From: an archaeon HR01
GTDB taxonomy: Archaea > Thermoproteota > Nitrososphaeria_A > Caldarchaeales > Caldarchaeaceae
Direction of reading: 5' to 3'
DNA length: 24,000 nt
Assembly: GCA_002898355.1 (NCBI GenBank)
Contig: BEHD01000004.1
Span: 46,540 to 70,539, forward strand
Shown here piece after piece: positions 1 to 20,579 of this stretch. The notes under the pieces were generated by a model, which had not been told where the DNA came from, made no database searches, and saw only the letters and a program-made list of their open reading frames with translations. The position numbers and the translations under genes are program-made. Each line of letters starts with the position of its first letter. The first letter of the stretch is position 1.

Positions 1-287
1 CGGCCCCTGCCGATATAGCCGACCACGTAGCCCTCCATACCTTTGATAAACAGGGTGAGGGGTGCGAAGAATCCGTAGCCTAGAAGTATGTCGGCCAGGG
101 CTGAGCCTATACCGCCGGCCAGAAAACCAACCCGGGCCCCGAAGACCAGGCCAGCCAGCATAACCATCGCATCGCCGATGTTGAAAAAACCTCTGGTGGG
201 TGCGAAGGGAATAACTATGAGCATGGTGGTAGCGGCTGTCGCAGCGGCCATCACGGCTGTGACAGCAACCTCTCGGCTGTCGGGCAT
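1..287 (-). CDS. ECF-transporter S-component-like membrane protein, N-terminal part (gene continues past the window start)
   Basis: Absent from the ORF track because it runs off the window. Reverse-strand translation from the ATG (complement of 285-287) gives MPDSREVAVTAVMAAATAATTMLIVIPFAPTRGFFNIGDAMVMLAGLVFGARVGFLAGGIGSALADILLGYGFFAPLTLFIKGMEGYVVGYIGRG. It shows hydrophobic helices and the NxGD..G...G...GGxGSxLADxLxGY pattern I associate with ECF substrate-capture components. It also explains why the first ~84 codons of track ORF 88..1770 look like antisense low-complexity sequence. Confidence 0.6.
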   Translation of the reverse strand, partial: MPDSREVAVTAVMAAATAATTMLIVIPFAPTRGFFNIGDAMVMLAGLVFGARVGFLAGGIGSALADILLGYGFFAPLTLFIKGMEGYVVGYIGRG

Positions 288-339: not shown

Positions 340-1770
340 GTGCCATTCATATGCAGTAGATGTGGTAGGGTCTGGTGGGGAGGCCGATGGATATGCGGGA
401 TATGTGGAGGCATCATCATACACAGGCCTGAGATTAGACCCTCACGCTATGAAGAGCTGATAGACAGTAAGGCCGGCGGCATCTGGCGTTATGGCCTACT
501 GCTTCCGGAGATACCTCAGCCATGGCGTATAAGTCTGGGCGAGGGTGGGACAGCACTCCTCAAGGCGGGAAGGCTGAGCCTCCGGATGGGCATTAGGGAT
601 GTTTACCTGAAGAACGAGACAGCGAATCCTTCAGGCTCCTTCATAGATAGGGGTGTGGCGGCGGAGATCTCCTACGCAGGCTCCAGAGGCTACAAGAGAA
701 TCGCATGCTTTAGCCGGGGGAACCTAGGCGTCTCAGTAGCAGCATACGCTGCTAAGACAGGCTTCGAAGCGATGGTCTACGCACCACCCTCCATCGAGAG
801 GGGTAAGCTCTACCTACTGCTCGCATACGACGCCCACGTTTTCTTCACAGAAAGAATGAGGAGGGGGGAGGTGGAGAGGCTCAGGAGAGATGGATACTAC
901 ATAGTCGAGAGCACCAGCCCCTACTTCCTCTCAGGCCTCAAAACCCTCGCATATGAGTTGGCTCTCCAGACAGCCCCCCAATACGTCGTCTTCCCTGTGG
1001 GAGAGGGGGGAAACCTGTCGATGTTCTGGGAGGGGCTGAAAGACCTCCGGGATGCAGGGGTCTCAAACATGATGCCACGCCTAGTGGCTGTCCAGTCCGA
1101 GGGCTGCATGCCGATAGTCAAAGCCTACAATAGCGGCGGAAAACCTGTCTGGAAAGGGCCGATAAGGACCATATTCGCCGATATAGCTGTCCCCAACCCA
1201 CCCCTGGGAGAGCTGGCCCTCCAATCCCTGAAGGAGTCGAGGGGGTTGGCTGTAGCCGTCAGCGATAGAGAGATTCTGGAGGCCACGAGGGATTTGGCCA
1301 GGATGGAGGGGTTGCTGGCTGAGCCGGCGGCCGCATCCACTGTGGCTGCGCTCAAGAAGCTACGTGATGAGGGGCTGGTTGGCTCCGACGTATCTGTGGT
1401 CTGTGTGATTACTGGTACAGGGTTGAAGGAGCCCTACCTGGGTGGGCCGATAGGGAGGGCTGCCAGAAGCATAGCCGCACGGGCTAGAGCATCATCCAGG
1501 ATAGGGGTGACCAAGTCGCGGATACTAGAAATCCTCGGCGAGAGAAGCCTGCACGGATATGGGATAAGAAAGGCTCTAGCATCCAAGTACGGCATCAAGA
1601 TTTCGACAGCCTCAACATATCAACATCTAGCCGAGCTTGCCGATGCCGGACTAGTCACCTACATACCAGTCAAACATAACGGCAGGATGCGGATAATTTA
1701 TGAGCTGACATCTTCCGGGAGACAGATACTCCAGCACCCGGTAGGAAATCCAAGCCGACACACCGTGTAG
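340..1770 (+). CDS. Threonine-synthase-like (fold-type II PLP) protein with N-terminal zinc ribbon, Ile at the catalytic Lys position, and C-terminal PadR-type wHTH
   Basis: Track ORF 88..1770 trimmed to the in-frame GTG at 340 (alternative ATG at 286), because 88-287 is antisense to the S-component gene and the TATA box lies at 309-318. Motifs: CSRCG..CGICGG, ETANPSGSFIDRG (canonical is GSFKDRG; codon 643-645 is ATA), GNLGVSVAAYAAKTG, GEGGNLSMFWEG, VCVITGTGLKEP. The C-terminus reads SRILEILGERSLHGYGIRKAL...YQHLAELADAGLVTY...GRMRIIYELTSSGRQIL, a PadR-like pattern. Confidence 0.8.
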   Translation: MPFICSRCGRVWWGGRWICGICGGIIIHRPEIRPSRYEELIDSKAGGIWRYGLLLPEIPQPWRISLGEGGTALLKAGRLSLRMGIRDVYLKNETANPSGSFIDRGVAAEISYAGSRGYKRIACFSRGNLGVSVAAYAAKTGFEAMVYAPPSIERGKLYLLLAYDAHVFFTERMRRGEVERLRRDGYYIVESTSPYFLSGLKTLAYELALQTAPQYVVFPVGEGGNLSMFWEGLKDLRDAGVSNMMPRLVAVQSEGCMPIVKAYNSGGKPVWKGPIRTIFADIAVPNPPLGELALQSLKESRGLAVAVSDREILEATRDLARMEGLLAEPAAASTVAALKKLRDEGLVGSDVSVVCVITGTGLKEPYLGGPIGRAARSIAARARASSRIGVTKSRILEILGERSLHGYGIRKALASKYGIKISTASTYQHLAELADAGLVTYIPVKHNGRMRIIYELTSSGRQILQHPVGNPSRHTV

Positions 1771-3039: not shown

Positions 3040-3522
3040 ATGCTTGGTTGGAAAATGGTTATACGTGGGGTGTTTTGGGTTTTTGGTGGCTTGACTGGTT
3101 CTAGCAGGCGTGTGGAGCTGGAGCTGAGGGGTAGGAGTCTGGAGGTTTTCCTCTATCTGGTGCGGAAGGGTGGGCCTGCGGGTGTTAGGGAGGTTCAGAG
3201 GGCCCTAAGCCTCTCCAGCCCCAGCGTCGCCCTCCACCATCTGGAGAAGCTTCACAGCCTTGGCGTTGTGAGAAAGGATGAGACAGGGGCATACCAAGCC
3301 GTTGAGAACGTGGACATCTCCGTCCTCCAGGCCTTTGTCAGGGTTGGGAGGCTTCTCCTCCCGAGGATGATGTTCTACGCAGCCTTCTTCACCACCTTCA
3401 CATCCCTGTATCTGGTCTTCGAGATTGGGCGTCTCAACCCCTACGCCATATCCCTCGGGGTTGCCGCATCGGCTTTCACATGGTTTGAGGCTGTTAGGGC
3501 TTGGAGGAGGAGGCCTTGGTAG
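3040..3522 (+). CDS. Membrane-anchored winged-helix transcriptional regulator (N-terminal wHTH plus 2 C-terminal TM helices)
   Basis: LRGRSLEVFLYLVRKGGPAGVREVQRALSLSSPSVALHHLEKLHSLGVVRKDETGAY is a classic ArsR/MarR-like wHTH. It is followed by two hydrophobic helices (MMFYAAFFTTFTSLYLVF and AISLGVAASAFTWF). Start uncertain: 3040, 3055, GTG 3070 or TTG 3091 are all in frame. Confidence 0.65.
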   Translation: MLGWKMVIRGVFWVFGGLTGSSRRVELELRGRSLEVFLYLVRKGGPAGVREVQRALSLSSPSVALHHLEKLHSLGVVRKDETGAYQAVENVDISVLQAFVRVGRLLLPRMMFYAAFFTTFTSLYLVFEIGRLNPYAISLGVAASAFTWFEAVRAWRRRPW

Positions 3523-3556: not shown

Positions 3557-3859
3557 ATGCTGTTGGATGGGATGAAGAGCCTCGCAATACCTCTCCTGCT
3601 GGGCGTGCTGCTGGCGGCGGCCCTATTCCAGATAATACCTAGGCCGGAGGAGCAGGCCTTCCAGCCGGCGGCGGAGCATCCCATGAAACAGTTTTCAACC
3701 ATAACCGTGACTGAGATGGCTGAGATGGCACCAGCCTACATGACTGGTGAGAAGGCTGAGATGGTCCCTACCTACGGAGGGTATGGGTTTCCGGTGGTGG
3801 CGGGTCTGTCGGCCGTTGTGGCCGTCGCAGCCTATCTCCTTTCAAGGCGGATGGTTTAG
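3557..3859 (+). CDS. Small secreted/membrane-anchored protein, hypothetical
   Basis: Track ORF 3425..3859 overlaps the previous gene, so it is trimmed to the in-frame ATG at 3557 (or 3572). It has an N-terminal signal/TM segment (MKSLAIPLLLGVLLAAALF), an internal AEM(A/V)P(A/T)Y repeat, and a C-terminal GYGF + hydrophobic helix + SRR tail. Confidence 0.45.
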   Translation: MLLDGMKSLAIPLLLGVLLAAALFQIIPRPEEQAFQPAAEHPMKQFSTITVTEMAEMAPAYMTGEKAEMVPTYGGYGFPVVAGLSAVVAVAAYLLSRRMV

Positions 3860-5586
3860 GCTGCCGGAGCCTTCATCTCCTTATAGCGCATCCTCAGCTG
3901 GGAGAAATCGGAGTTCATCCTCTTGATGGAGGTGTATGTTTTCGCCCTGTCTATGGCTTTTTCGTACTCCCTACCCCTTCTCTTGAGATACTTCTCTATA
4001 CGGTCCAGCCAGAACCTTGCGCCGTAGGTTAGGAGGGATGTGGTGAGGAGTCTCATCAGGAGGTTGTCTCTCCCTATCCTCCACGCCACGGCCTCAGCCA
4101 TCCTCTTGGTGTTTCTCCAGCAGACGTATATGAGGGCGGCCTGCGCTGGTGTCAGCTGGCCGTAGACATCTGTCAGGACGTTGGTCCCCCTTAGAGCTCC
4201 AAGGTTTACGAGGCTCATGGGCGTGACTGTGAAGAGGAGGTTCTCATACATCATGTAGTTTATCAGCCCTATCGTATCCCAGCTATCCTCCTCGGTCTCG
4301 CCCTCCTGCCCCAGTATTATCGTGTATGCCGGTATCCAGTAGGCGGCGTTATAGACACGCTGGGCCTCCACCACTATCTCGGACCATGTCCCATCCACAC
4401 CCACCTTCAACGGCTTAGCCTTATTCACCATATGCTTGAGGACCAGTCTGTCGCTACCGGTCTCCAGCCCTATCTGGACACCTATATGCCTTCCCGGCCC
4501 CGCCCCAACTATCTTTGCAACGCCCATGGCTGCCTCAGGGTCTGCGGCCACGGGTGCAAGGGTTGCATGCATGGGGTTGGCGTGGGCTACACCGTCAAGC
4601 CCCAAGACTGTTCGGTAGAGCCTGAATATCTCCTCCTTATTGGGCCAGAAGTTGGGGTCCTTCACCATGTATGCCCACTGGTTATCCGTTACAAACCATG
4701 CGTTGCTGATGCCGGCCCTCCTGTTAACCATCACCTCCTCGGCCACCTTCTCAGGCGGGTAGTATCTAAGCGGCCTGGTGGTTACCTCGCAGAAGTCGCA
4801 GTCTATTCCGCAGCCCCTCATTATCTCCGCCTGCCCGCTTATGGCCGGGTTGACTATCGTCGGTATATCGGATATCTTCGGTAGCCTATACTTGGATGCT
4901 GGGTTTCTGCATATAAAACGTCCTCCGCCGTCCTTCATGTATCTTATGAAGGGTCGGCCGTATGAGTCGAACTGTGTGGACTTGTAGCCATGCATAAACA
5001 TGGTCTTGTCGATATCCCCCTCTATCAGCTGCTCGAAGAGTAGGTGTATGATGTCGTCCATCTCACCCTGCACAACATAGTCTATCTCTAACCTCTCAAT
5101 CATCCAAGGCCTGTGCTCAAACTCCCACTCGCCAGACCCACCCAGCAAAACCTTGGCCCTGGAGCCTGAGTTCTTCTTAGCTACGGCGATACTCCTCATC
5201 AGCCCTTCGAACTCCTCCGTCACCCATGACTTCTCCCTCCCCGCGTTGTTGAACATTAGGGTTAGAGGCCCAAGCCCGAGGGGGTCCATCGTGTTGACGC
5301 CGATTATCTTGGTGTCCGACTTGATGAAATGGTGGACGAAGCGTGGATGGGCCACAACAACCTTAAGCTTAGATTTCTTCACCAGGCAGGCCTCTATCTT
5401 TCTGATGGCGTAGGGAGCTAGGACCGCCCTCCCATACTCATCGTAGGGTGCGTCCGGCAGGGAGAGGTATCGGTAGATGGGGCCTGGGACATACCGCACA
5501 GGCGCGCATGGGAGAAAGCTGAGTAGGGGGAAGTTATGAAAAAGATGGCCGAGTGATGGGTCGAAAGTGAGTACTACCTCAGTCAT
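3856..5586 (-). CDS. Radical SAM protein with N-terminal B12-binding-like (Rossmann-type) domain, COG1032-like
   Basis: CxxxCxxC cluster motif in AEIMRGCGIDCDFCEVT. The N-terminal KVVVAHP...IIGVNTMDPLGLGP region resembles the cobalamin-binding-like domain of class B rSAMs. Only 8 Cys in total, so probably a single Fe-S cluster. A TATA-like box (TTAAATAT on the minus strand, ~5613-5621) lies ~30 nt upstream of 5586. Confidence 0.8.
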   Translation of the reverse strand: MTEVVLTFDPSLGHLFHNFPLLSFLPCAPVRYVPGPIYRYLSLPDAPYDEYGRAVLAPYAIRKIEACLVKKSKLKVVVAHPRFVHHFIKSDTKIIGVNTMDPLGLGPLTLMFNNAGREKSWVTEEFEGLMRSIAVAKKNSGSRAKVLLGGSGEWEFEHRPWMIERLEIDYVVQGEMDDIIHLLFEQLIEGDIDKTMFMHGYKSTQFDSYGRPFIRYMKDGGGRFICRNPASKYRLPKISDIPTIVNPAISGQAEIMRGCGIDCDFCEVTTRPLRYYPPEKVAEEVMVNRRAGISNAWFVTDNQWAYMVKDPNFWPNKEEIFRLYRTVLGLDGVAHANPMHATLAPVAADPEAAMGVAKIVGAGPGRHIGVQIGLETGSDRLVLKHMVNKAKPLKVGVDGTWSEIVVEAQRVYNAAYWIPAYTIILGQEGETEEDSWDTIGLINYMMYENLLFTVTPMSLVNLGALRGTNVLTDVYGQLTPAQAALIYVCWRNTKRMAEAVAWRIGRDNLLMRLLTTSLLTYGARFWLDRIEKYLKRRGREYEKAIDRAKTYTSIKRMNSDFSQLRMRYKEMKAPAA

Positions 5587-5683: not shown

Positions 5684-6625
5684 ATGGCCGGCATCTCAAA
5701 ACTTCTCCAGAACCCGCCTATGTTCTACAAGTCGCTGGAAAGCGATGACCGGATAAGGCGTGGCATACTAGTCCTGGCCCTGGCTACATCCTCATCAATA
5801 ATTCTCTCACTGATATACTACCAGGTGAAAACCGTCTACGAGATCTTCCTCCCCTCACCAATCTCTCTAGATCTCAACGTGCTGCATACAGACTTTCTCA
5901 TCATGTCAAACCTAACCGCCATATTCATCACATCGGTCGTTCTCATCGGCGTAGGCCGGCTGGCGGCGAAGATTGTAAGGGGTAAGGATGTAAGCTTGAA
6001 GGCTTTCGTCAGCGCCATCTTCCACAGCTTCTTCTTGCTATTCATTCTAAACGTCGTCTCAGCCCCCCTAATACTGGCGGCCCCCTCGGAAAAGGTCTAC
6101 GTTATCGGAGCCGAGCTGGAGAACGTAGTCTTCTTCAACATAACCCTGACGGGATATACCCCGTCGGGCGAGATGGTCAACATAACCCGAGACGTTTTAA
6201 CAGTCTCAAGACTGGACGTGGAGAGAGCAGCAACGGACGGCACGAGAATCAGCTCATCACTTGTGGACAGGAAAAGGTTCGAGGAGATTATTCAGGGGTC
6301 GGCATCCAACATAACCATGACCGGTGTCTCAGGTGCAGAGACAGAGCTGGACCATGTGAGGGTCGTCACCCTAGCCTTCGACGACTACGTGGCCAGGAGG
6401 ACCGTCCTGAGCGACATACTTGTGGTAAGCGAGGGTGTTGACCTACCCTATCTGGCAACCCTCCCAGGCATAAACACGGTCCGAAACATAGTTTGGAGGG
6501 TGATGCTTGTTCTTGGCCTCTACTGGTCCCTCAGGGCCTTACATCTGATCTCCCGTAAAGTCAGCATCCCCGTCGCTATACTGTCCTATCTTATCCTGGC
6601 GAACTTTGTCCCCGCACCATTCTAA
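5684..6625 (+). CDS. Multi-pass membrane protein, Yip1-domain-like
   Basis: 313-aa ORF. The N-terminus (LLQNPPMFYKSLE...RRGILVLALA) resembles Yip1/DUF1282 starts. It has several TM helices and a ~130-aa loop with NxT/S sequons (NITL, NITR, NITM). An A/T box at ~5652-5662 lies ~26 nt upstream of the ATG. Confidence 0.5.
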   Translation: MAGISKLLQNPPMFYKSLESDDRIRRGILVLALATSSSIILSLIYYQVKTVYEIFLPSPISLDLNVLHTDFLIMSNLTAIFITSVVLIGVGRLAAKIVRGKDVSLKAFVSAIFHSFFLLFILNVVSAPLILAAPSEKVYVIGAELENVVFFNITLTGYTPSGEMVNITRDVLTVSRLDVERAATDGTRISSSLVDRKRFEEIIQGSASNITMTGVSGAETELDHVRVVTLAFDDYVARRTVLSDILVVSEGVDLPYLATLPGINTVRNIVWRVMLVLGLYWSLRALHLISRKVSIPVAILSYLILANFVPAPF

Positions 6626-11844: not shown

Positions 11845-11918
11845 GCCCAGGTGGTATAGCCAGGTTAGCATCGCCGGCTGTCGCCCGGCGGACCCGGGTT
11901 CAAATCCCGGCCTGGGCG
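11845..11918 (+). tRNA. tRNA-Asp (anticodon GUC)
   Basis: GCCCAGG/CCTGGGC acceptor, GCCGG-CTGTCGC-CCGGC anticodon arm, 4-nt variable loop, CCGGG-TTCAAAT-CCCGG T arm, discriminator G. The D stem pairs imperfectly in my hand fold. A/T box (AACTAAATAAAA) lies ~25-30 nt upstream. Confidence 0.85.
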
Positions 11919-12066: not shown

Positions 12067-14439
12067 ATGAGATATGTAGGTAATAGAATAACTAAGTTTA
12101 GTGACCCTCCTCTCCTTACTGGGCGGGCAAGATATGCGGGTGATATAACACCACCTGGAACGCTCTACGCATGTTTCGTAAGATCTAAGTATGCACACGC
12201 AAGGATAAGAGGGATAGATACGAGTAGAGCTTCTAGGGTTCCAGGTGTTAGAGCATTAATTATAGGTGATGAATTCCTCGATTACCCTATCTTCCAGCCC
12301 ATATCCACTAAACCGTATAAACCCTATGGTGCCAAGGAAGCTACTGTATACCCGCTGGTAGTGGGTAAGGTTAGGTTTGTAGGGGAGCCAATTGTGATGG
12401 TTGTAGCCGAAAGCAGAATCGCTGCGGCTGAGGCAGCCTCCCTAGTAGATGTTGATTATGACGTTCTCCCTGCTGTTGTAGACCCTGAAGAGGCTCTGAA
12501 GCCAGGCGCTCCCAAGGTATACGACCACTGGGATGGAAACTTGTTTATGAAGTTCCCGTCGGAGTGGGGTGACGTTGACGCTGCTTTCGGTAAAGCTGAA
12601 TACACATTGTCTGATAGCGTTAGGATACAGCGCTTCACTGGCCAGGCATTAGAACCCCGAGCTTACGTAGCAGACTATAACACTATAGAAAACCACTTGA
12701 CCTTCTACTCGTCTACTCAACAGCCCCATCCACTTAGGACTATACTCGCAGAGACCCTTAAGATACCTGAGAACCAAGTGCGGGTTGTCCAGCCATATGT
12801 TGGTGGCGGGTTTGGTCTTAAAATACCTCCATTCCAAGAGGAGATAGCTGTAGCTGTAGCTTCTGTTAAGCTTGGACGCCCGGTTAAGTGGGTTGCAGAG
12901 AGGTGGGAAGAGTTAATGGCTGGGGGGCACGCTCGTGATCAGAGACACTATTTTGAAGTGGCATTCAACAGTGATGGAAAGATACTCGGGATGAAGGTCA
13001 GGATAATAGCTGATATGGGTGCTCTCTTCCCAACCCCCGGATGGGGTATGCCTTTAGTAACTACAATTCATCTCCCAACTGTCTATAAAGTGGAGAATTA
13101 TAGAATAGAGCTACTGGAGATTGTTACTAATAAGAATCCGCTTAATGCATATAGAGGATATGGGAAGGAGTGTGCATGCTTCCTGATGGAGAGGATAATG
13201 GACATGGTCGCTAGGAGACTTGGAAAAGATAGGATAGATATTAGGATGAAGAACTTCATCCCTCCCAATGATTTTCCAGCAAGGATATCTAGATACACAG
13301 TCCTAGATAGCGGTAATTATCCAACAGTCTTGAAGAGAGCGGTAGAGGTATTCGAGTATGAGAAATGGCTTAAGTTAAAGGAAGAGGCTAGGAAGAAGGG
13401 CCGCTATATAGGAATAGGGGTAGCGTACGAGCTGACACCGGAGGGCGCATGTATACCTGGCTCATTCTTCCTCCAATACGATGCAGTAACAATAAAAGTT
13501 GCTCCAACTGGTAAGGTTTTAGTATATACTGGTATAACATCGCCTGGGAATGGGCAGGAGACCGCTATAGCCCAGATAGTGGCTGATAACCTGGGAGTAA
13601 GCATAGACGATGTTGTTGTTTATCAGGGCGATACAGACCTATGCCCATACGGCTTAGGAAATTTTAGTGGGAGAAGCATGATATCAGGCGGTTCGGCGGC
13701 TCTACTTGCATCTATAGAATTGCGAGAGAAGCTTCGGAAAGTCGCTGCAAGGATTCTAGAGTCCCGGCCAGAGGATTTGGAGGTATCTGACGGGAAATTC
13801 TATGTTAAAGAGGTGCCTGAAAGACAGGTAACTATAAGAGACGCAGCCTTCGCTATCTATAAGAACCCTTACGACCTAGCCATAGATGTAGAGCCGGGGC
13901 TGGAAATAACTAAATACTTTAAAATGCCTAACGCGCTCCACATACCTGATGAATCAGGATATACACGAACATATACTAGCTTCCCAAACGCAGCCCATCT
14001 CTGCGCAGTAGAGGTCGATATAGAGACAGGAAAGTTTGACATCCTCAAATACGTAGTGGTTGATGATTGTGGGAAAGTTATTAACCCTATGATAGTTGAA
14101 GGACAGCTCCACGGTGGTGTAGCGCAGGGGATAGGAGGAGCGATAATGGAAGAGCTTGTCTATTCTAGCGCGGGCCAGCTGCTTACCACTACATTTATGG
14201 ATTATCCAATCCCTACAGCGAAAGAGGTTCCAGACATGATTATCGAGCATGTCGAGACACCAAGTCCATATACACCAACGGGAGCTAAAGGTGTTGGAGA
14301 GTCAGGGATAGTAGGAGCGCCCGCATGTCTAGCTAGTGCTGTAGAGGATGCGTTAAGCGACTTTGGGGTAAAGGTTATGGAGACACCGCTACGCCCAAGC
14401 CGCGTATGGCGGTTAATACAGGAGGCGAGAAAGAAGTGA
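12067..14439 (+). CDS. Molybdopterin-dependent hydroxylase large subunit (xanthine dehydrogenase/CoxL/CutA family)
   Basis: 790 aa. Motifs QPYVGGGFGLK, NAYRGYGKE and the C-terminal GAKGVGESG (active-site Glu context). Lacks the form-I CODH VAYRCSFR loop. Lower GC and different third-position usage than the flanking genes. Confidence 0.9.
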   Translation: MRYVGNRITKFSDPPLLTGRARYAGDITPPGTLYACFVRSKYAHARIRGIDTSRASRVPGVRALIIGDEFLDYPIFQPISTKPYKPYGAKEATVYPLVVGKVRFVGEPIVMVVAESRIAAAEAASLVDVDYDVLPAVVDPEEALKPGAPKVYDHWDGNLFMKFPSEWGDVDAAFGKAEYTLSDSVRIQRFTGQALEPRAYVADYNTIENHLTFYSSTQQPHPLRTILAETLKIPENQVRVVQPYVGGGFGLKIPPFQEEIAVAVASVKLGRPVKWVAERWEELMAGGHARDQRHYFEVAFNSDGKILGMKVRIIADMGALFPTPGWGMPLVTTIHLPTVYKVENYRIELLEIVTNKNPLNAYRGYGKECACFLMERIMDMVARRLGKDRIDIRMKNFIPPNDFPARISRYTVLDSGNYPTVLKRAVEVFEYEKWLKLKEEARKKGRYIGIGVAYELTPEGACIPGSFFLQYDAVTIKVAPTGKVLVYTGITSPGNGQETAIAQIVADNLGVSIDDVVVYQGDTDLCPYGLGNFSGRSMISGGSAALLASIELREKLRKVAARILESRPEDLEVSDGKFYVKEVPERQVTIRDAAFAIYKNPYDLAIDVEPGLEITKYFKMPNALHIPDESGYTRTYTSFPNAAHLCAVEVDIETGKFDILKYVVVDDCGKVINPMIVEGQLHGGVAQGIGGAIMEELVYSSAGQLLTTTFMDYPIPTAKEVPDMIIEHVETPSPYTPTGAKGVGESGIVGAPACLASAVEDALSDFGVKVMETPLRPSRVWRLIQEARKK

Positions 14440-15311
14440 TCCATCAACCATTTGAATACTTTGCCCCCAAAACCATAAACGAAGCACTCAAACTCCTAAA
14501 CAAGTATAGAGAAGACGCTAAGATATTGGCCGGGGGGCAAAGCCTAGTCCCCATGATGAACTTAGGCATAGTCTCACCGAAATATGTAATAGACATAAAC
14601 AACATAGGAAAACTGTCAGAGATCAGAGAAAACAAAAACCAGATAACGATAGCTCCATTAGTTAGGCACTATGAAATAGCTGAGTCGAAAATAATTAAAC
14701 GAGCCATACCCATGTTATCAGAGGCAGCCAGCCATATAGGCGATATGCATATAAGACATAGGGGGACCATAGGGGGAGCTATATGTCATGCAGACCCCGC
14801 AGCCGACTACGCGCCAGTGCTCGCAGCGCTAGATGCTAAGCTGGAGATACAAAGCGTTAAGAGGAGGAGGATAGTGTCTGCTAGGAACTTCTTTAAGGAT
14901 GCATTTACCACGGAGCTAAAGCCGAACGAGCTACTCAAGGCTATACACATACAAAAGGTTGGACAAAGAACAGGAACAGCCTATCAGAAGCTAGAATTTG
15001 TAAGCGGGGGTTATGCAGTGGTTGGTGTGGCAGCTTTAGTAGCACTGGATGGAGAGGGTCTGATAGAAAAGCTGGTAGTGTCGGTGGGAGGTGTAGAGAG
15101 GCGACCTATAACTATAGTTTTCAACGGGGATGTGCTAGGAAGAAAGATAGAAAACGCAACGATAGAGGAGATATGCGGCGCTGTAAAGGATAAGATATCT
15201 GAGCCGCTCTCCGATATACACGCTGACGGCGAATATAGGAGATCTATGGCGGCTGTATATACCAAGAGAGCTGTGTTGAAGGCCGCCAACCGTGCTTTAG
15301 GAGGTGAATAG
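14436..15311 (+). CDS. Mo-hydroxylase FAD-binding medium subunit (CoxM/CutB family)
   Basis: (V)IHQPFEYFAPKTINEALKLL start, AGGQSLVPMMNLG, HRGTIGGAICHADPAADY. Start set at GTG 14436, which overlaps the large-subunit TGA (GTGA coupling). The track's ATG at 14406 is the alternative. Confidence 0.85.
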   Translation: MIHQPFEYFAPKTINEALKLLNKYREDAKILAGGQSLVPMMNLGIVSPKYVIDINNIGKLSEIRENKNQITIAPLVRHYEIAESKIIKRAIPMLSEAASHIGDMHIRHRGTIGGAICHADPAADYAPVLAALDAKLEIQSVKRRRIVSARNFFKDAFTTELKPNELLKAIHIQKVGQRTGTAYQKLEFVSGGYAVVGVAALVALDGEGLIEKLVVSVGGVERRPITIVFNGDVLGRKIENATIEEICGAVKDKISEPLSDIHADGEYRRSMAAVYTKRAVLKAANRALGGE

Positions 15312-15313
15312 GG

Positions 15314-15796
15314 ATGGTTAACAAGGTAAAGGTGAACCTGAAGCTAAATGGGGAGAGATTTTCAGCGGAGATAGACCCTAGAATGCTACTATGCGACTTT
15401 ATAAGAGATGTAGCAGGTTTGACTGGGACGCATATAGGGTGCATGACAGGGAATTGCGGCGCATGCACAGTCTTGATGAATGGAAGGACAGTCAAGTCCT
15501 GCACTATACTAGCTGCGCAAGCAAACGGCTCAGATATAACAACGATTGAGGGTCTAAGCAAGGGGCTTGAACTCAATCCTATACAGCGTGCATTCCATAA
15601 ACGCTACGCTGTCCAGTGCGGCTACTGCACCCCAGGCATGATAATAACAGCCCACTATCTACTATCTCTGGGAAAGACGTTAAGCAGACAAGAGATAAGA
15701 GAACATATATCCGGAAACCTGTGTCGCTGCACCGGCTACCAGAATATAATAGATGCTATAGAGGAGTTGTTAAGGGATAAGGGGCTCTTGAGGTAA
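15314..15796 (+). CDS. Mo-hydroxylase [2Fe-2S] small subunit (CoxS/CutC family)
   Basis: Two cluster motifs: CMTGNCGACTV and CGYCTPGM...CRCTGY. GGAGGTGA lies 6 nt upstream of the ATG. Confidence 0.9.
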   Translation: MVNKVKVNLKLNGERFSAEIDPRMLLCDFIRDVAGLTGTHIGCMTGNCGACTVLMNGRTVKSCTILAAQANGSDITTIEGLSKGLELNPIQRAFHKRYAVQCGYCTPGMIITAHYLLSLGKTLSRQEIREHISGNLCRCTGYQNIIDAIEELLRDKGLLR

Positions 15797-15802
15797 GGCT
15801 AT

Positions 15803-16855
15803 ATGAAGTTTGGTTTGGCTTATAGTATCCAGTCGCCAACTAAGGAATGGAGCCAGGCCTACGATAACGTTGTTGAGCAGACGCTACTAGCTGAGCGGCT
15901 AGGGTTTGATTCAGTATTGATAAGCGAGCACCATCTAACTGATGACGGATATTTCCCATCACCCTTGGTTGTAGCCGCCGGGCTATCTAGCGTTACAAGG
16001 CGCATAAGGGTGGGAACAGCGGTTGTTTTAGTCCCTCTCCACCACCCGGTGGAGGTCGCCGAGGCAGCTGCCGTAACCGACGTTATGTCTAGAGGTAGGC
16101 TGATACTAGGACTTGGATTGGGCTATAGGCCTGAAGAATTCAACCTATACAACGTGCCGCGTAGGGAGAGGGGTCCCAGGCTTGAGGAGGGGACTACACT
16201 TATCCGTAGGCTTTTATCAGAGGAGAACGTAACGTTCAGCGGCCGATTCTACAAGGTAAACAAGGTTACACTAACTCCGAGGCCAGTGCAGAGACCGCCG
16301 CCTATATGGATAGCGGCAAAGTTTGAGCCAGCCATAAGAAGGGCGGCTAGAATTGGTGACGCATGGTTTGCAGACCCTGTAACCCCCCTTAAGGTCTTGA
16401 AGGAGCGCAATAACATCTATCTTGACGAGCTTAAGCGGATAGGGAGAGACCCAGCTATGCTAGAGCGCCCACTCTGGCGCGAGGCATATGTAGCTGGCAG
16501 CGATGATGAGGCTTGGGAGGTTGCTAAAGACGGGGTTCTATACATCTATGGCAGGGATTACTTCAGATGGGGTCACCTACAGGACGAGGAAGGAAGAGAG
16601 GTAAACCCTCAAAACACTAGCTTCGAAGAGTTTGCAGAGACCCTGCGAAAACGTTTCATCATACGCGGAGTAGATGGATTCATAGACGAAGTGGAGAAGT
16701 ATAGAAGAGAGATTGGAACAAACTATTTTGTCTTCAGAATATACTTCCCAGGGATGAGGCATGATAAGGCTTTAGACGCCATACGCTTGATAGGAACAAA
16801 GATCATACCTTATTTTGAAGAGGATAAAAAACCTAGCGGAGCCGGCATTCCTTAG
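15803..16855 (+). CDS. LLM-class (luciferase-like) flavin-dependent oxidoreductase
   Basis: MKFGLAY..., GFDSVLISEHH, RIRVGTAVVLVPLHHP, LILGLGLGYRPEEF are typical LLM patterns. GAGGT lies upstream. Last gene of the low-GC operon. Confidence 0.85.
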   Translation: MKFGLAYSIQSPTKEWSQAYDNVVEQTLLAERLGFDSVLISEHHLTDDGYFPSPLVVAAGLSSVTRRIRVGTAVVLVPLHHPVEVAEAAAVTDVMSRGRLILGLGLGYRPEEFNLYNVPRRERGPRLEEGTTLIRRLLSEENVTFSGRFYKVNKVTLTPRPVQRPPPIWIAAKFEPAIRRAARIGDAWFADPVTPLKVLKERNNIYLDELKRIGRDPAMLERPLWREAYVAGSDDEAWEVAKDGVLYIYGRDYFRWGHLQDEEGREVNPQNTSFEEFAETLRKRFIIRGVDGFIDEVEKYRREIGTNYFVFRIYFPGMRHDKALDAIRLIGTKIIPYFEEDKKPSGAGIP

Positions 16856-17197: not shown

Positions 17198-17221
17198 GTT
17201 TATATGGTGGTTTATATTGTG
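17198..17221 (+). promoter_or_regulatory. Tandem 12-nt direct repeat GTTTATATgGTG / GTTTATATtGTG containing two TATA-like boxes
   Basis: 11 of 12 positions identical and directly adjacent. The second box is centred ~35 nt upstream of the ATG at 17249. The repeat overlaps the track's ATG at 17204, which argues against that start. Confidence 0.4.
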
Positions 17222-17248
17222 GGGTCCGTCGGCGGCGGACGAGCTGGG

Positions 17249-17839
17249 ATGGGGGACGTGGAGGTCGGCCAGGTCAGGCTTCATGTGGGTGTTGCAGGCT
17301 TCTCGGTGGTGGCTGGGATTGTCTTCACGGTTACAAGCCATTGGGTGGCTCCTCTGGCCTTTGCGGCCGGCGGGCATCTGGGCGTTGCGCTGGTCTACGG
17401 GCTTTGGTTTATGGGTGGGCCGTTGACCGCCTACATTGTGAGGAGGCCTTGGTCGGCCTTCCTCGGGGAGACGGTGGGAGCTATTGTCGAGCTGCTGCTG
17501 GTAAGCCCCTACTCCATCATGCTCTACTACTATGGCCCAGCCCAGGGGATAGTCAGCGAGGCTGTCTTCAGAGCCTTCAGATACAGAAACTTCGGCTACA
17601 AGGCCATGATTCTGGCTGGAGGGCTTCCAGCCCTCGCCGCCTACCCCTTCGACTGCCTAATCTCACCCTTCTACCCTGCCTGCAGGTCTCCCGGATACCC
17701 TCTGGAGCTCCACATCGGCTTGATCGCCGGCATGGCCGTAAGCGGGGCAGTTCTCGCAGGTGTCCTGGTGAAGGTGGTGGTTGACTCGGCTGTTTCCTCG
17801 GGCGCCCTCAGGAGTTGGCCGGTGGCGCGGATGAAGTGA
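17249..17839 (+). CDS. ykoE: ECF transporter S component, YkoE-like (HMP/thiamine-precursor specific)
   Basis: YGLWFMGGPLTAYIVRRPWSAFLGETVGAIVELLLVSP...QGIVSEAVFRAFRY...VSGAVLAGVLVKVVVDS matches my recollection of the YkoE pattern. It has 5-6 TM helices and is followed by a fused double ATPase and a T component. Start uncertain (17204 in the track, 17249 preferred). Confidence 0.7.
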   Translation: MGDVEVGQVRLHVGVAGFSVVAGIVFTVTSHWVAPLAFAAGGHLGVALVYGLWFMGGPLTAYIVRRPWSAFLGETVGAIVELLLVSPYSIMLYYYGPAQGIVSEAVFRAFRYRNFGYKAMILAGGLPALAAYPFDCLISPFYPACRSPGYPLELHIGLIAGMAVSGAVLAGVLVKVVVDSAVSSGALRSWPVARMK

Positions 17840-19161
17840 TAGTCGGAGACCTCTATGTGAAGGGTCTTAGAGTGGTGGTGGATGGCTTCGTTCTTGGCCC
17901 CCTAACCTTTAGGGTTGGGAGTGGTTCCTGCCTTGGAGTGGTGGGTGGAAACGGCTCAGGGAAAACCCTCTTGGTCAAGGCTTTGGCCGGTCTCATCAGC
18001 CATGAGGGAGAGGTGGCCTTAGGCGGTGTCAAGAAAGATGATGTCTCAAGATTTGAATGGTTTAGGAGGGTTGGGGTTGTTCTGGATGAATACGTCGGGT
18101 TGAGGGTTGCGTCGAACGTGGGCGATGAAGTGGCTTTCACCCTTGAAAACCTCGGCCTCGAGCCGGATAAGACGGCCGAGATGGTGCTGGAAACCCTCAA
18201 GCTTATGAGGATGGAGGAGATGATAACGTATGACGTCAACACGTTGAGCAGCGGTTACGCTGCCAGGCTATCGCTGGCGGCCGCCATGGCCCACAGACCA
18301 GCCCTACTCCTTCTGGATAACCCTCTCAAGCACATAGACCCACCCACAAGACATGAGATAGTGGAACGGCTGGTCGAGATTAAAAAACGTGGGACACGCA
18401 TAGTTGTAACTGCTACACACGCTAAAGACTACTCACCCCTGATAGATGAGGTCATCCACCTCGGCGGCGGGGATGGAGGTCCGTGGGATATGCGTGGTGC
18501 GGGGAGAAATGCCGGGGGTGGCGGGGCTGTTGTGGAGGCTGAAGGCGTCAGCTTCCGCTATGACGGAGTTGAAGCGGTCAAGAACGTGTCGCTTGTCCTA
18601 CGCTCAGGTGTCGTCACGGCCTTGGTTGGGAGGAACGGAGCCGGGAAGACGACACTGGGCAAAATCCTAGCGGGGCTGATAAAACCCAGCAGGGGACGGC
18701 TGAGGCCTGGGAAGGTCAGGGCTGCCTTCATGTCTTCAAACCCGGAAACACAGCTGGTGGGGCGGACGCCTAGGGAGGACATCATGGTAAGCCTCTCAAA
18801 AAAAGGCGGAGACCCCGGTAAAGCCGGTGAGATAGTTGAGGAGTTCGGCTTGGCCGGTGTAGCCGACAAACCCCTCCAAAGCCTCGGTAGGGGGATTAAG
18901 CGTCTGACGGCTCTGCTTTCCCTCTACACCTTGAAGCCAGCCCTCCTAGTCCTGGATGAACCCACCCAAGGCCTCGACTCAGCCCTGTCATCCATGGCCG
19001 CCAAAATCATCACACTGCAGGCGGCTGAGGGCAGGGCGGCCTTAATCATATCCCACGACATCGAGTTCGTGAAGGCTGTGGCTGACAGGGCCCTCGTCAT
19101 GCGTGACGGAGAGGTTGTAGCCGAAACCAGTCCCCAGGAACTTGGTGAGGGGATGCTTTGA
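17836..19161 (+). CDS. ykoD: ECF transporter ATPase, fused tandem NBDs (YkoD/EcfA-A' type)
   Basis: Two Walker A motifs (GGNGSGKT, GRNGAGKTT). Signatures LSSGY and SLGRG. Walker B LLLLDNP (NBD1) and LLVLDEP (NBD2). H-loops TATH and ISHD. Start set at GTG 17836, overlapping the ykoE TGA (GTGA); the track's TTG at 17815 is the alternative. Confidence 0.85.
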   Translation: MIVGDLYVKGLRVVVDGFVLGPLTFRVGSGSCLGVVGGNGSGKTLLVKALAGLISHEGEVALGGVKKDDVSRFEWFRRVGVVLDEYVGLRVASNVGDEVAFTLENLGLEPDKTAEMVLETLKLMRMEEMITYDVNTLSSGYAARLSLAAAMAHRPALLLLDNPLKHIDPPTRHEIVERLVEIKKRGTRIVVTATHAKDYSPLIDEVIHLGGGDGGPWDMRGAGRNAGGGGAVVEAEGVSFRYDGVEAVKNVSLVLRSGVVTALVGRNGAGKTTLGKILAGLIKPSRGRLRPGKVRAAFMSSNPETQLVGRTPREDIMVSLSKKGGDPGKAGEIVEEFGLAGVADKPLQSLGRGIKRLTALLSLYTLKPALLVLDEPTQGLDSALSSMAAKIITLQAAEGRAALIISHDIEFVKAVADRALVMRDGEVVAETSPQELGEGML

Positions 19162-19829
19162 ACCCCAGAGCGCTGAACCCATCCATCAAACTGGTCTTCC
19201 TCGCATACATCTTCACCCTGGTCAGCCTCCTAAACATGCTGCAGCACCTCCTCTATCTCCTACTCCTCACCCTGGTCCTCGCCCTAGCCTCGCATGTTAA
19301 GCCGTCAGGCCTTTTGAGGGTTTTCGTGGGTGTGGCACCAATGGCCTTTGGACTTGGGTGGTTCAACGCAGCCTTATCCGGTGACATAACATATCTGCCC
19401 ATGGTAGCCCTCAAAATCTACACATTAACCACTGCAACGGCCTACTTCGCCTCCACAACCGACCCGACAACCTTCTTCCACAGCCTCGTTCAAAACCTCC
19501 GGCTCCCCTACAGCTTCAGCCTCCCCCTCTCCCTAGCCTACCTAATCCTGAAAGACCTCCTCACATGGTATGTCGAAGCCGTCCACTCCCTCCGCGGGAG
19601 ATGGATACTGGGGAGTGGCTGGGAGACACCCTTCAAACTGAGGCTGGTGGGTGTGATGCTCCTAAACTATGTCTCAAGCCGTCTCGAGATGCTGGCTGAA
19701 GCCCTTGAGGTGAGATGCTTCACAACAGCGAGAAAACCGTGGAGAAGAGTCGCCGTCACGGGATGGGATTATATCTTCATCACCGTGTTGGTCTCGGCCA
19801 CAGTCCCCGTAATCATCCTCACAGCCTGA
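19158..19829 (+). CDS. ykoC: ECF transporter transmembrane T component (EcfT/CbiQ family, YkoC-like)
   Basis: Polytopic membrane protein. Coupling-helix motifs AVHSLRGR and AEALEVRCF (Ax3Ax2R(G/C)). The TTG start overlaps the ATPase TGA (TTGA). Confidence 0.7.
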   Translation: MNPRALNPSIKLVFLAYIFTLVSLLNMLQHLLYLLLLTLVLALASHVKPSGLLRVFVGVAPMAFGLGWFNAALSGDITYLPMVALKIYTLTTATAYFASTTDPTTFFHSLVQNLRLPYSFSLPLSLAYLILKDLLTWYVEAVHSLRGRWILGSGWETPFKLRLVGVMLLNYVSSRLEMLAEALEVRCFTTARKPWRRVAVTGWDYIFITVLVSATVPVIILTA

Positions 19830-20493
19830 AGGGCCATCCAACCAGGCGGTACGACTCATCCCAGAAGAGATACTCGTAAACCGTTGACAGCCTGAAGAGT
19901 CTCACAGCAGCCCTGGCCTCCGCCTCGGAGATTTTCTCACCATGTCTATCCACCATCTCGACAAGCCCTCTAACATTCCTCTCATACTCTTCCGAGGTGT
20001 AGGTCTCTATCCATCGCCTGTAGGTCTTGTTGGGCGAGCCCTTCTTAACAAGGCTTCTGCCCACCTCGAGGTAGACCCAGAAACAGGGTAGGATGGCTGC
20101 AAGACCCTGGGTGAAGGGCTTGTCGTATGCTGTGGCTGTGAGGAAGTTGGTGTAGGCTGTGTTCACCGGCGACATCGTGAAACGGCCGAGTTCTTCAAGG
20201 GTCAGCCCCCACTCCGAGAAGAGGAACTCGTGGAGGGATTTCCTCTCAAACGAGAGGGCCGCATGGGCGTTGGATAGGAGTGCTAGGGCGTCATCATCCT
20301 GGTCTGCCTTCACACCCACCAGCGCCACAGCCCTTGCGAAAGCGCTTAGGTAGAGGGCGTCCTGGATGATGTAGTGCTTGAAAACATCGATATCTAATCC
20401 ACCCGAGGTCAGGCCTTCTAAAAATGGGTGACGTAGGATACCCTCATAGACATCTCCGATACTCCGCCAGAGCTCAGCGGCGAAAACGGGCAT
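19819..20493 (-). CDS. tenA: TenA-family aminopyrimidine aminohydrolase (thiaminase II)
   Basis: HPFLEGLTSGGLDIDVFKHYIIQDALYL start. Catalytic-Cys context AAILPCFWVY. C-terminal EYLFWD. TTAAATA (minus strand, 20516-20522) lies ~26 nt upstream of the ATG at 20493. Confidence 0.85.
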   Translation of the reverse strand: MPVFAAELWRSIGDVYEGILRHPFLEGLTSGGLDIDVFKHYIIQDALYLSAFARAVALVGVKADQDDDALALLSNAHAALSFERKSLHEFLFSEWGLTLEELGRFTMSPVNTAYTNFLTATAYDKPFTQGLAAILPCFWVYLEVGRSLVKKGSPNKTYRRWIETYTSEEYERNVRGLVEMVDRHGEKISEAEARAAVRLFRLSTVYEYLFWDESYRLVGWPFRL

Positions 20494-20552
20494 AGATGTT
20501 TAAACCTTGGATGCGTATTTAAGGTCTGTTTGGCTGTGGCGGCCGCCATGCC

Positions 20553-20559
20553 TATAAAT
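20553..20559 (+). promoter_or_regulatory. TATA-like box (TATAAAT) of the acyl-CoA dehydrogenase gene, flanked upstream by the palindrome TGGCGGCCGCCA (20537-20548)
   Basis: Centred 24 nt upstream of the ATG at 20580. The 12-bp perfect palindrome occupies the BRE-proximal position. Confidence 0.45.
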
Positions 20560-20579
20560 CGGCGTGTGTATTATTTGTC

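Follow-up and report, generated by a model that had tools for sequence, protein, structure and literature searches.

A threonine synthase-like domain fused to a PadR-type winged helix as a candidate vitamin B6-responsive regulator in archaea

What is the role of a gene whose product resembles threonine synthase (ThrC), carries isoleucine at the position of the lysine that binds pyridoxal 5'-phosphate (PLP), and ends in a DNA-binding domain? The gene occupies positions 340-1770 of the window, that is, the whole 24,000-nucleotide (nt) stretch of contig BEHD01000004.1 of the archaeon HR01 analysed here. An earlier reading made without database searches (the sequence-only reading) had proposed that the gene joins an enzyme-derived, non-catalytic sensor to a PadR-type winged helix-turn-helix (wHTH) and acts as a regulator, and this proposal is now supported by the domain architecture, the loss of catalytic residues, the gene linkage and a palindrome in the promoter. 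Taking these lines together with the retention of the cofactor scaffold and the conserved position of the palindrome, we consider it fairly probable, with real reservations, that the product senses B6 and represses both its own gene and the genes for B6 uptake and synthesis, which would make it an archaeal counterpart in function to the bacterial regulator PdxR. Which ligand is bound, whether the holo- or the apo-form represses, dimerisation and DNA binding are all inferred. The gene and the parts of its product are as follows.

340-1770, plus strand: ThrC-like/PadR fusion gene; product of 476 amino acids (aa), candidate B6-responsive transcription regulator
352-411, plus strand: N-terminal four-Cys zinc ribbon (CSRCG...CGICGG, residues 5-24); C5, C8, C19 and C22 conserved at 90% or more
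529-1416, plus strand: fold-type-II PLP-fold domain (residues 64-359; PF00291 (PALP), 6e-62), read as catalytically dead
643-645, plus strand: ATA codon, Ile102, at the Schiff-base lysine column, from alignment to solved threonine synthases
1000-1014, plus strand: GEGGN loop (residues 221-225), counterpart of the G-N-A-G-N loop that holds the PLP phosphate in ThrC
1420-1506, plus strand: Ala/Arg-rich flexible linker (residues 361-389); predicted local distance difference test (pLDDT) below 50 over residues 361-386
1507-1734, plus strand: PadR-type wHTH (residues 390-465; helix-helix-helix-beta-beta-helix; PF03551, 5e-13)

The reading frame is open from position 88 and ends at the stop codon 1768-1770. 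The GTG start at 340 is backed by the relatives L086 (GTG) and L082 (ATG), which start at the same position; it directly follows a conserved promoter block and places the zinc-ribbon motif from residue 5 onwards. Since unfused archaeal ThrC relatives carry the same N-terminal ribbon, this element was inherited and is not new. The best solved relatives found with phmmer were threonine synthases, namely 2zsj (3e-52), followed by 2d1f, 1uim and 6cgq. Foldseek also gave 2zsj as the best match of the enzyme-like body (TM-score of 0.81, normalised to the target), and it returned no solved structure with a fused ThrC-like/PadR architecture. An AlphaFold2 (AF2) model built from a 25-sequence alignment (mean pLDDT 87.2) presents a ThrC-like body, a disordered linker at residues 361-386 and a well-defined winged helix, supporting the two-part protein that the sequence-only reading had described. 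The assignment of the C-terminal region to the PadR family was also confirmed by Pfam, as PF03551 matched residues 395-465 with 49.3 bits against a gathering score of 27, covering positions 1-74 of the 75 in the profile. In the full-length model the winged helix reached a mean pLDDT of 82-94 per 10-residue block over residues 391-460; the model of the wHTH built from its single sequence was poor (pLDDT 63.5), and its fold-search matches were almost only PadR structures, at E values of 5e-3 or weaker. No GntR or Aminotran_1_2 domain was matched in the window protein. The linker varies in length and sequence across the alignment, and its start falls within the conserved TGxGLK loop, which contacts the cofactor.

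The ATA codon had been proposed to lie at the PLP-lysine column, and the alignment to solved threonine synthases agrees with this: in all three printed alignments the query segment npsgsfIdrg is placed on nptgsfKdrg of 2zsj, 2d1f and 1uim, and counting along 1uim identifies the Ile102 column with K61. A protein search listed 120 homologues, and in the MAFFT alignment, which took in 119 sequences, the lysine was missing in 91/91 fused proteins and present in 28/28 unfused ones. We then consider the wider survey, two contig scans that covered genomes and metagenomes and yielded 93 unique PALP-PadR fusions with a readable column. The residues found there were R in 40, K in 15, L in 14, I in 12, V in 5, M in 4, T in 2 and A in 1, while all unfused ThrC relatives with a readable column in the same survey had K (70/70). 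A residue other than Lys thus stands in 78/93 fusions and K in the other 15; loss of the lysine is dominant (84%) but not universal. Because non-Lys residues recur throughout the fusions while the unfused relatives keep K, the absence of the lysine in the window is, on this comparison, no sequencing error. The fusions that keep K form a subclade of Asgard archaea and Bathyarchaeia with the motif NPTNSFKDR (L013, L017, L024, L033-L037, L106, L108, L114, L123, L133, L136 and L150). Its members have lost the ThrC substrate residues all the same and still adjoin the transporter gene described below, and its sister subgroup has Arg at the lysine column.

The substrate site was followed through five residues of Thermus thermophilus ThrC, T88, N154, R160, N188 and H319, which are reported (Omi et al., 2003) to bind the substrate phosphate or to take part in catalysis. 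All five are conserved in 28/28 unfused relatives, and in the window protein they are replaced by L129, E190, F196, E222 and T360, respectively. The sequence-only reading had stated that every ThrC landmark is present; each of the strings it quoted was found, and these five residues depart from the claim. Across the fusions the columns hold the following residues.

T88 column: L, M, H or Q
N154 column: T, A or S
R160 column: F, L, V, S, T or A
N188 column: mostly T or S, with N retained in about a third
H319 column: S, A, M or T

As T88, R160 and H319 are replaced in every fusion subgroup, the K-retaining one included, these columns indicate that the fusions, with or without the lysine, are not threonine synthases. 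The scaffold that holds the PLP ring and 5'-phosphate is invariant or nearly so (F60, D62, R63, G86, N87, K165, T166, G187, G190, E287, P288, T317, G318, G320 and K322). Ten of these positions, D62, R63, G86, K165, T166, G187, E287, T317, G318 and K322, are invariant in 91/91 fusions; N87 is kept in 89/91, P288 and G320 in 90/91 each and G190 in most, and the F60 column holds Phe in 81 and Tyr in 10 of the 91. A189 is changed to G in 91/91. No conserved replacement nucleophile or base was found among the family-specific positions of the fusions. Judged by these residues, the conserved pocket is the signature of selection for binding rather than for catalysis.

The neighbouring genes point to a ligand of the B6 type. 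The following gene begins on the other side of the promoter.

3-287, minus strand: the 5' 95 codons, up to the window edge, of an energy-coupling factor (ECF) transporter S-component gene of the PdxU/PdxU2(HmpT) family (PF07155, 8.8e-28); candidate regulated target, divergent

Open reading frames were called and clustered around the 39 fusion loci of the first scan, and only one neighbour family recurred broadly, an ECF S-component located 25-220 nt from the regulator gene. In the full set, a PF07155 S-component was found within 1.5 kb at 71/94 unique fusion loci, as compared with 0/73 unfused ThrC loci, and at 40/50 of the fusion loci with at least 1.5 kb of sequence on both sides; the divergent S-component gene, which the sequence-only reading had taken as relevant context, is thereby upheld as such. 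It may be divergent from, co-directional with or convergent to the regulator gene across Nitrososphaerota/Aigarchaeota, Bathyarchaeia, Thor-, Hermod- and Promethearchaeota, Thermoprotei and Thermoplasmata. The window S-component is 77% identical to the one beside the L001 orthologue, and the only Protein Data Bank match of the L003 orthologue was HmpT of Lactobacillus brevis (4HZU chain S, 4.3e-15), of which four of the six pocket residues are kept in the archaeal S-component (E41 as E or D, Y120, N140 and Q143). The substrate of L. brevis HmpT is pyridoxamine (PMC4860826). PF07155/COG4720 includes PdxU and PdxU2/HmpT, which account for two of the three prokaryotic B6 transporters that have been characterised and are the sole ECF S-components among them (PMC9997740), and RibU, despite the Pfam name, belongs to COG3601 (PMC5397151). 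In three loci, L031 (Nitrososphaerales), L009 (a 'Methanobacteriota' metagenome-assembled genome, MAG) and L007 (Thermoplasmata), the divergent neighbour is pdxS-pdxT, which encodes PLP synthase; pdxS was identified by SOR_SNZ (2e-95), and tblastn identity between the three loci was 72-74%. No S-component was present anywhere in the sequence retrieved for these loci. The linkage to the S-component and to pdxST reproduces the functional signature of PdxR, which is divergent from B6 transport or synthesis genes, a resemblance of function only.

A further gene, of the PurM/AIRS superfamily and about 336 aa long, follows the S-component gene at 27/94 fusion loci, for example at these positions.

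L023, 7969-8976: PurM-like gene
L030, 8214-9224: PurM-like gene
L081, 7029-8036: PurM-like gene
L012, 3105-4118: PurM-like gene

Its product is closest to HypE and ThiL and lies far under the cut-offs for HypE, ThiL, SelD and every NCBIfam equivalog (94-99 bits against 184 for ThiL). By the logic of salvage loci that combine a transporter with a kinase, it is a possible candidate for a B6-vitamer kinase. Genes for HAD phosphatases occur occasionally near the fusions. Neighbours coding for rubrerythrin, VIT1, ZIP, HD and glycosyltransferase proteins were set aside as lineage-specific synteny that is uninformative.

Between the two divergent genes lie a promoter element and a candidate operator, neither of which is tied to one strand.

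309-317: TATA box (AATATATAA), at a distance of about 26 nt from each of the two divergent start codons (287 and 340)
324-337: candidate operator, 14-bp palindrome ACCTA-CATA-TAGGT; family consensus GCCTA-TATA-TAGGC

The order is thus the S-component ATG on the minus strand (287), the TATA box, the palindrome and the regulator GTG (340), with the palindrome between the TATA box and the regulator start codon. The TATA box is conserved in the window and in L086, L082, L085 and L001, and the sequence further upstream diverges. An archaeal TATA box usually lies about 26 nt upstream of the transcription start site (TSS), and since the box has this spacing to both start codons, 309-317 is probably one bidirectional promoter core that gives two leaderless mRNAs, with TSS positions that we infer from the spacing.

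The first candidate operator of the sequence-only reading, CCTACATATAGG (325-336), forms the core of this palindrome and is conserved in the clade to which the window belongs. Relatives at 51-79% protein identity share ATATATAAGCTAT-(A/G)CCTACATATAGG(T/C), which ends 2 nt before the start codon, and diverge near the S-component start. The motif CCTA-N4-TAGG occurs once in the 24-kb window, at this palindrome, and looser matches occur at the background rate. Occurrences were counted within 170 nt upstream of the zinc ribbon of the regulator, with these results.

Hydrophobic-column clade: 24/34 loci (16 with a perfect core)
R/K clade: 2/53 loci
Unfused ThrC: 1/72 loci

The palindrome is placed 7 nt after the TATA box and 2-25 nt before the start codon. 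Its outer bases covary, being A..T in the window and G..C in L082 and L085, a pattern that a symmetric dimer site would show. Beyond the lineage of the window it reads GCCTATATATAGGC in Thorarchaeota and Bathyarchaeia and ACCTAAATATAGGC or GCCTATATATCGGC in Nitrososphaerota; a degenerate copy (TGCTATATGTAGGT) lies 15 nt before the start in L087, and the candidate operator pattern for genomes with hydrophobic-column members is GCCTAWWWWTAGGC. In the three pdxST loci the palindrome stands in the intergenic region facing pdxS-pdxT, with two copies 20 bp apart in L009 and L007. The geometry of L031 is that of the window with pdxS replacing the S-component (pdxS ATG 5915, TATA box 5937-5944, palindrome 5951-5964, regulator start 5974). 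The candidate operator at 324-337 abuts the region of the TATA box and the TFB recognition element used for the divergent gene. Its centre falls about 10 nt before the predicted TSS of the regulator, where occupation would block the recruitment of RNA polymerase, a common mode of repression in archaea. The clade specificity speaks for a role of the palindrome beyond that of a generic promoter element, and DNA binding at it is predicted.

Two other sites were rejected as operators. The sequence GCCTATAAATCGGC at 20550-20563 resembles the operator with one core mismatch and lies 17 nt before the ATG (20580) of an acyl-CoA dehydrogenase gene, of which it is most likely the TATA box. The second candidate operator of the sequence-only reading, the hairpin GGATGCtatGCATCC (1810-1824), does exist, but it reads GGAGGCtatGCATCC in the 93%-identical relative L170, so that one arm is not maintained, and it has no similarity to the family palindrome. 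Rfam detected no riboswitch or other RNA family near the fusion gene.

Taken together, these observations suggest the following mechanism. The sensor would be a PLP-fold domain derived from threonine synthase that has lost the phosphohomoserine site and, in the clade of the window, the Schiff-base lysine. A B6 vitamer, most likely free PLP and possibly pyridoxamine 5'-phosphate (PMP) or pyridoxine 5'-phosphate (PNP), would bind reversibly and non-covalently in the pocket. This would alter how the domain closes and where the TGxGLK loop lies, a loop that runs straight into the linker and the winged helix. ThrC and PadR proteins are dimers, and for this reason the fusion is expected to dimerise as well. 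The liganded (or unliganded) dimer would then occupy the palindrome ACCTACATATAGGT (324-337) and block recruitment of TFB and RNA polymerase, shutting off both the regulator gene and the divergent gene, whose S-component (PdxU/HmpT) is of the B6-uptake type; pdxS-pdxT would take over its position as the target in other archaea. In this way the supply of B6 would feed back negatively on its own uptake and synthesis. In the K-retaining subclade PLP may be held as an internal aldimine, as it is in MocR regulators, and this supports an aldehyde cofactor as the ancestral ligand. Among the ligands offered by the sequence-only reading, those of the B6 type are favoured, and phosphohomoserine or an amino acid is disfavoured, as the substrate residues are replaced and no threonine-pathway genes co-occur.

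The nearest functional parallel is found in the MocR family (PdxR, GabR, TauR), which, like the fusion, consists of transcription factors with a PLP-fold effector domain. In MocR proteins an N-terminal GntR wHTH precedes a fold-type-I aminotransferase domain that keeps its Schiff-base Lys, whereas the fusion has an N-terminal zinc ribbon, a fold-type-II ThrC domain and a C-terminal PadR wHTH, has lost the Lys in 84% of cases and is archaeal. As the type of DNA-binding domain, the PLP fold type and the domain order all differ, the two are not homologous as regulators. PdxR is divergent from its targets and autoregulated, and the same is proposed for the fusion. PdxR senses PLP and controls pdxST and, in streptococci, the pdxU/pdxK salvage locus (PMC9997740; PMC11619246).

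With respect to its other relatives, the fusion shares with canonical PadR proteins (PadR, LmrR, Rv3488) a PF03551-type wHTH and a palindromic operator with two 5-bp half-sites, which here is a candidate. Those proteins have about 100-180 aa and dimerise by a helix or domain at the C terminus, and their ligands, phenolic acids or drugs, bind at the interface of the dimer; in the fusion the wHTH is appended at the C terminus, and it would be the 360-aa PLP-fold domain that senses the ligand and probably also mediates dimerisation. With threonine synthase (TIGR00260; archaeal zinc-ribbon type NF006050) it shares homology (3e-52 to 2zsj), the fold and the zinc ribbon of unfused archaeal ThrC, and it differs in the catalytic Lys and the five further residues replaced in the window protein, in the added linker and wHTH, and in a genomic context of B6 rather than threonine biosynthesis. 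On this basis it is a ThrC paralogue by descent that lacks three of the four ThrC features tested (the lysine, the substrate residues and a score above the curated cut-off). Archaeal vitamin regulators of the same design logic have precedents. In such regulators an enzyme that belongs to a cofactor pathway, or that uses the cofactor, is joined to a wHTH and takes over from the bacterial riboswitch or regulator. ThiR reportedly joins a ThiN-like domain to a helix-turn-helix and likewise acts through palindromic operators at vitamin and transporter genes (Rodionov et al., 2017). RbkR, a riboflavin kinase with a wHTH, is like the fusion enzyme-derived and has palindromic operators at biosynthesis and transporter genes, ECF S-components included (PMC5397151). 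The folds and vitamins of RbkR and ThiR differ from those of the fusion, RbkR is still an active kinase, and the fusion takes its sensor from an enzyme that uses the cofactor rather than from one that makes it.

Several points weigh against a role in B6 control. Two pocket residues of HmpT are changed in the archaeal S-component (H84 to K and Q87 to E), and in PF07155, a broad family, specificity is difficult to carry over from one member to another (PMC9997740). The adjacency to pdxST is limited to three loci, and the PurM/ThiL/HypE-like gene, the frequent third member of the neighbourhood, might be a sign of thiamine-type chemistry. The palindrome is all but absent (2/53 loci) from the R/K subgroup, which makes up over half of the family, and enumeration of palindromes upstream of its members gave no recurrent element; moreover, the palindrome has a TATA-like sequence, so that its conservation may in part stem from promoter function. 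In three loci, which belong to two Aigarchaeota-like relatives (P0007 and P0005), the gene divergent from the regulator codes for a pterin-binding enzyme (PF00809, 5.9e-55), which is not a B6 gene; NifU lies downstream, and neither an S-component nor pdxS was found within about 4 kb.

L087, 2986-3915: pterin-binding enzyme gene
L088, 404-1333: pterin-binding enzyme gene
L089, 617-1564: pterin-binding enzyme gene

The most serious rival keeps the architecture and the regulatory role and assigns the effector and the regulon to thiamine-pyrimidine salvage, with hydroxymethylpyrimidine (HMP), its phosphate (HMP-P) or another small heteroaromatic phosphate as the ligand. It owes this rank to the PurM/ThiL-like neighbour after the S-component at 27/94 loci and to the naming history of the transporter, whose family was first called HmpT after an original assignment to hydroxymethylpyrimidine (PMC4860826). 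HMP-P also resembles PMP, two of the six HmpT pocket residues differ, and the window itself holds a YkoE-type ECF system and TenA. We nevertheless regard this reading as unlikely, as it is pdxS-pdxT and not thi genes that stand at the divergent target position in three lineages, and the context clustering of the 39 first-scan loci placed no thiC, thiD, thiE or thi4 beside the fusions. In addition, the sensor retains the very residues with which ThrC holds the PLP ring and 5'-phosphate, the subclade with the Schiff-base Lys makes sense only for an aldehyde cofactor, and the PurM-like protein, far below the ThiL cut-off, is no ThiL equivalog.

A bifunctional protein, both enzyme and regulator in the manner of RbkR or BirA, would still catalyse a reaction, with or without PLP, on a substrate that is related to B6 or of another kind. 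Fold-type-II chemistry requires the Schiff-base lysine for transaldimination and as a catalytic base, and this column holds Ile in the window and a residue other than Lys in 84% of the family, with no conserved nucleophile or base at the family-specific positions to take its place. Set against this are the high conservation of the active-site scaffold, the 15/93 fusions that keep the Lys and the archaeal precedent of RbkR (PMC5397151), which leave the bifunctional reading a slim chance.

We find it improbable that O-phosphohomoserine, threonine or another amino acid is what the dead ThrC domain senses, and that its targets lie in amino-acid metabolism and include the racemase gene that follows in the window. 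The domain does descend from ThrC, and the Asp/Glu/hydantoin racemase gene (PF01177, 3.7e-61; gene region 1810-2636) is also present in the closest relative, the 93%-identical L170 (region 1046-1998). The residues named above as binding the substrate phosphate (T88, N154, R160 and N188) are, however, replaced by hydrophobic or acidic ones, no thr, hom or ilv genes recurred among the clustered first-scan neighbours, and the palindrome upstream of the racemase gene is not conserved even at 93% protein identity. The racemase, which the sequence-only reading had counted as regulatory context, is syntenic only in L170 and falls in no conserved neighbour cluster; it is absent from the other clustered first-scan loci (later loci were not screened for it), and we dropped it as a member of the regulon. 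Its start is most likely ATG 1919 and not GTG 1881, with a TATA box of its own at about 1869-1877 and a GGAGG Shine-Dalgarno-like stretch. That AAA, one transversion away, was misread as ATA, or that a decaying thrC pseudogene was frameshift-fused to a PadR gene, has practically no chance and was ruled out by the conservation across the family: a non-Lys residue recurs in 78/93 independent unique loci of many phyla, the frames are intact with about 40 invariant columns, and the coordinated replacement of five other catalytic residues is impossible from one error.

Returning to B6 sensing, a broader proposal is tentative and in our view rather doubtful: that the family is the missing B6 regulator of archaea of the Asgard, TACK and Thermoplasmata types, combining lysine-free PLP sensing and repression through GCCTA-N4-TAGGC with a new salvage module made of the PdxU-like S-component and a PurM-superfamily protein as a non-orthologous B6-vitamer kinase. 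A survey of PLP pathways names only bacterial regulators of the PdxR type and describes B6 transporters as little known (PMC9997740), and our literature search found no described regulator of vitamin B6 metabolism in Archaea. The fusion family would offer a regulator, an operator and a regulon for archaeal B6 that are open to direct testing, and a natural case of a fold-type-II PLP enzyme turned cofactor sensor. Its K, Arg and hydrophobic subclades make a ready series for comparing covalent with non-covalent PLP sensing, and the linkage nominates the uncharacterised PurM-like protein as a possible vitamer kinase.

As for the extent of the family, a search with the last 132 residues returned 155 clusters (50% identity) among 1.84 billion representatives, and about 80 of the 150 clusters listed are proteins of 430-500 aa matched at their C terminus. 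Every full-length fusion that the genome scan recovered belonged to an archaeal record, the lineages being Aigarchaeota/Nitrososphaerota, Bathyarchaeia, Thor-, Hermod- and Promethearchaeota, Thermoprotei, Methanomethylicota, Thermoplasmata and a 'Methanobacteriota' MAG. The architecture had been called uncharacterised, and this holds in one sense only. Cofactor-sensing regulators derived from enzymes are already known and the ThrC/PadR version is apparently undescribed; the literature search, in which most subscription journals lay outside coverage, found no prior description of the threonine synthase-like/PadR family as a regulator. In the other sense, this widespread archaeal family is already modelled in NCBIfam as 'threonine synthase': NF004170, with that name and 442 positions, spans the wHTH and therefore models the fusion family. 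The window protein falls below the NCBIfam cut-offs (TIGR00260, 154.1 against 167.1 bits; NF006050, 221.7 against 303; NF004170, 258.3 against 421). Five lysine-less fusions, P0074, P0083, P0068, P0030 and P0006, lie above the thrC cut-off of TIGR00260 (179-213 against 167.1 bits), and P0030 also passes NF006050, so annotation pipelines name such fusions threonine synthase. By the residues discussed above, the family is catalogued yet misnamed, and systematic misannotation of this kind can lead metabolic reconstructions of uncultured archaea to show threonine pathways as complete when they are not. An error of a different sort affects L085, where the start called for P0004 (locus position 5001) is 75 nt too far downstream; positions 4926-5000 hold the promoter block and the zinc-ribbon codons (MPFRCSICG), and the deposited 438-aa P0004 is without its N terminus.

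The remaining features of the window are listed below. Positions 17204-20493 hold the only ECF energising module in it, which could also energise the S-component at 3-287; together with TenA this cluster looks, from its gene content, like a thiamine-pyrimidine salvage system.

17204-17839: YkoE/CblT-type S-component (PF09819)
17815-19161: fused double ABC ATPase (EcfA-A')
19158-19829: EcfT/CbiQ
19819-20493, strand opposite to the ECF cluster: TenA/THI-4 gene
2645-2718: tRNA Cys-GCA, found by ARAGORN only and not by Rfam at its gathering score
11116-11208: tRNA Pro-GGG, 93 nt and so probably intron-containing
11845-11918: tRNA Asp-GTC

Downstream of the racemase gene, positions 3040-3522 encode a protein of 160 aa that has a LexA-type wHTH, is hydrophobic in its C-terminal half and is syntenic in L170, and its gene is adjoined on the opposite strand by one for a 576-aa radical S-adenosylmethionine protein (3856-5586, minus strand). 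Finally, positions 12067-16855 hold a molybdenum hydroxylase set with MoCoBD large, FAD-binding medium and 2Fe-2S small subunits, followed by a luciferase-like monooxygenase.

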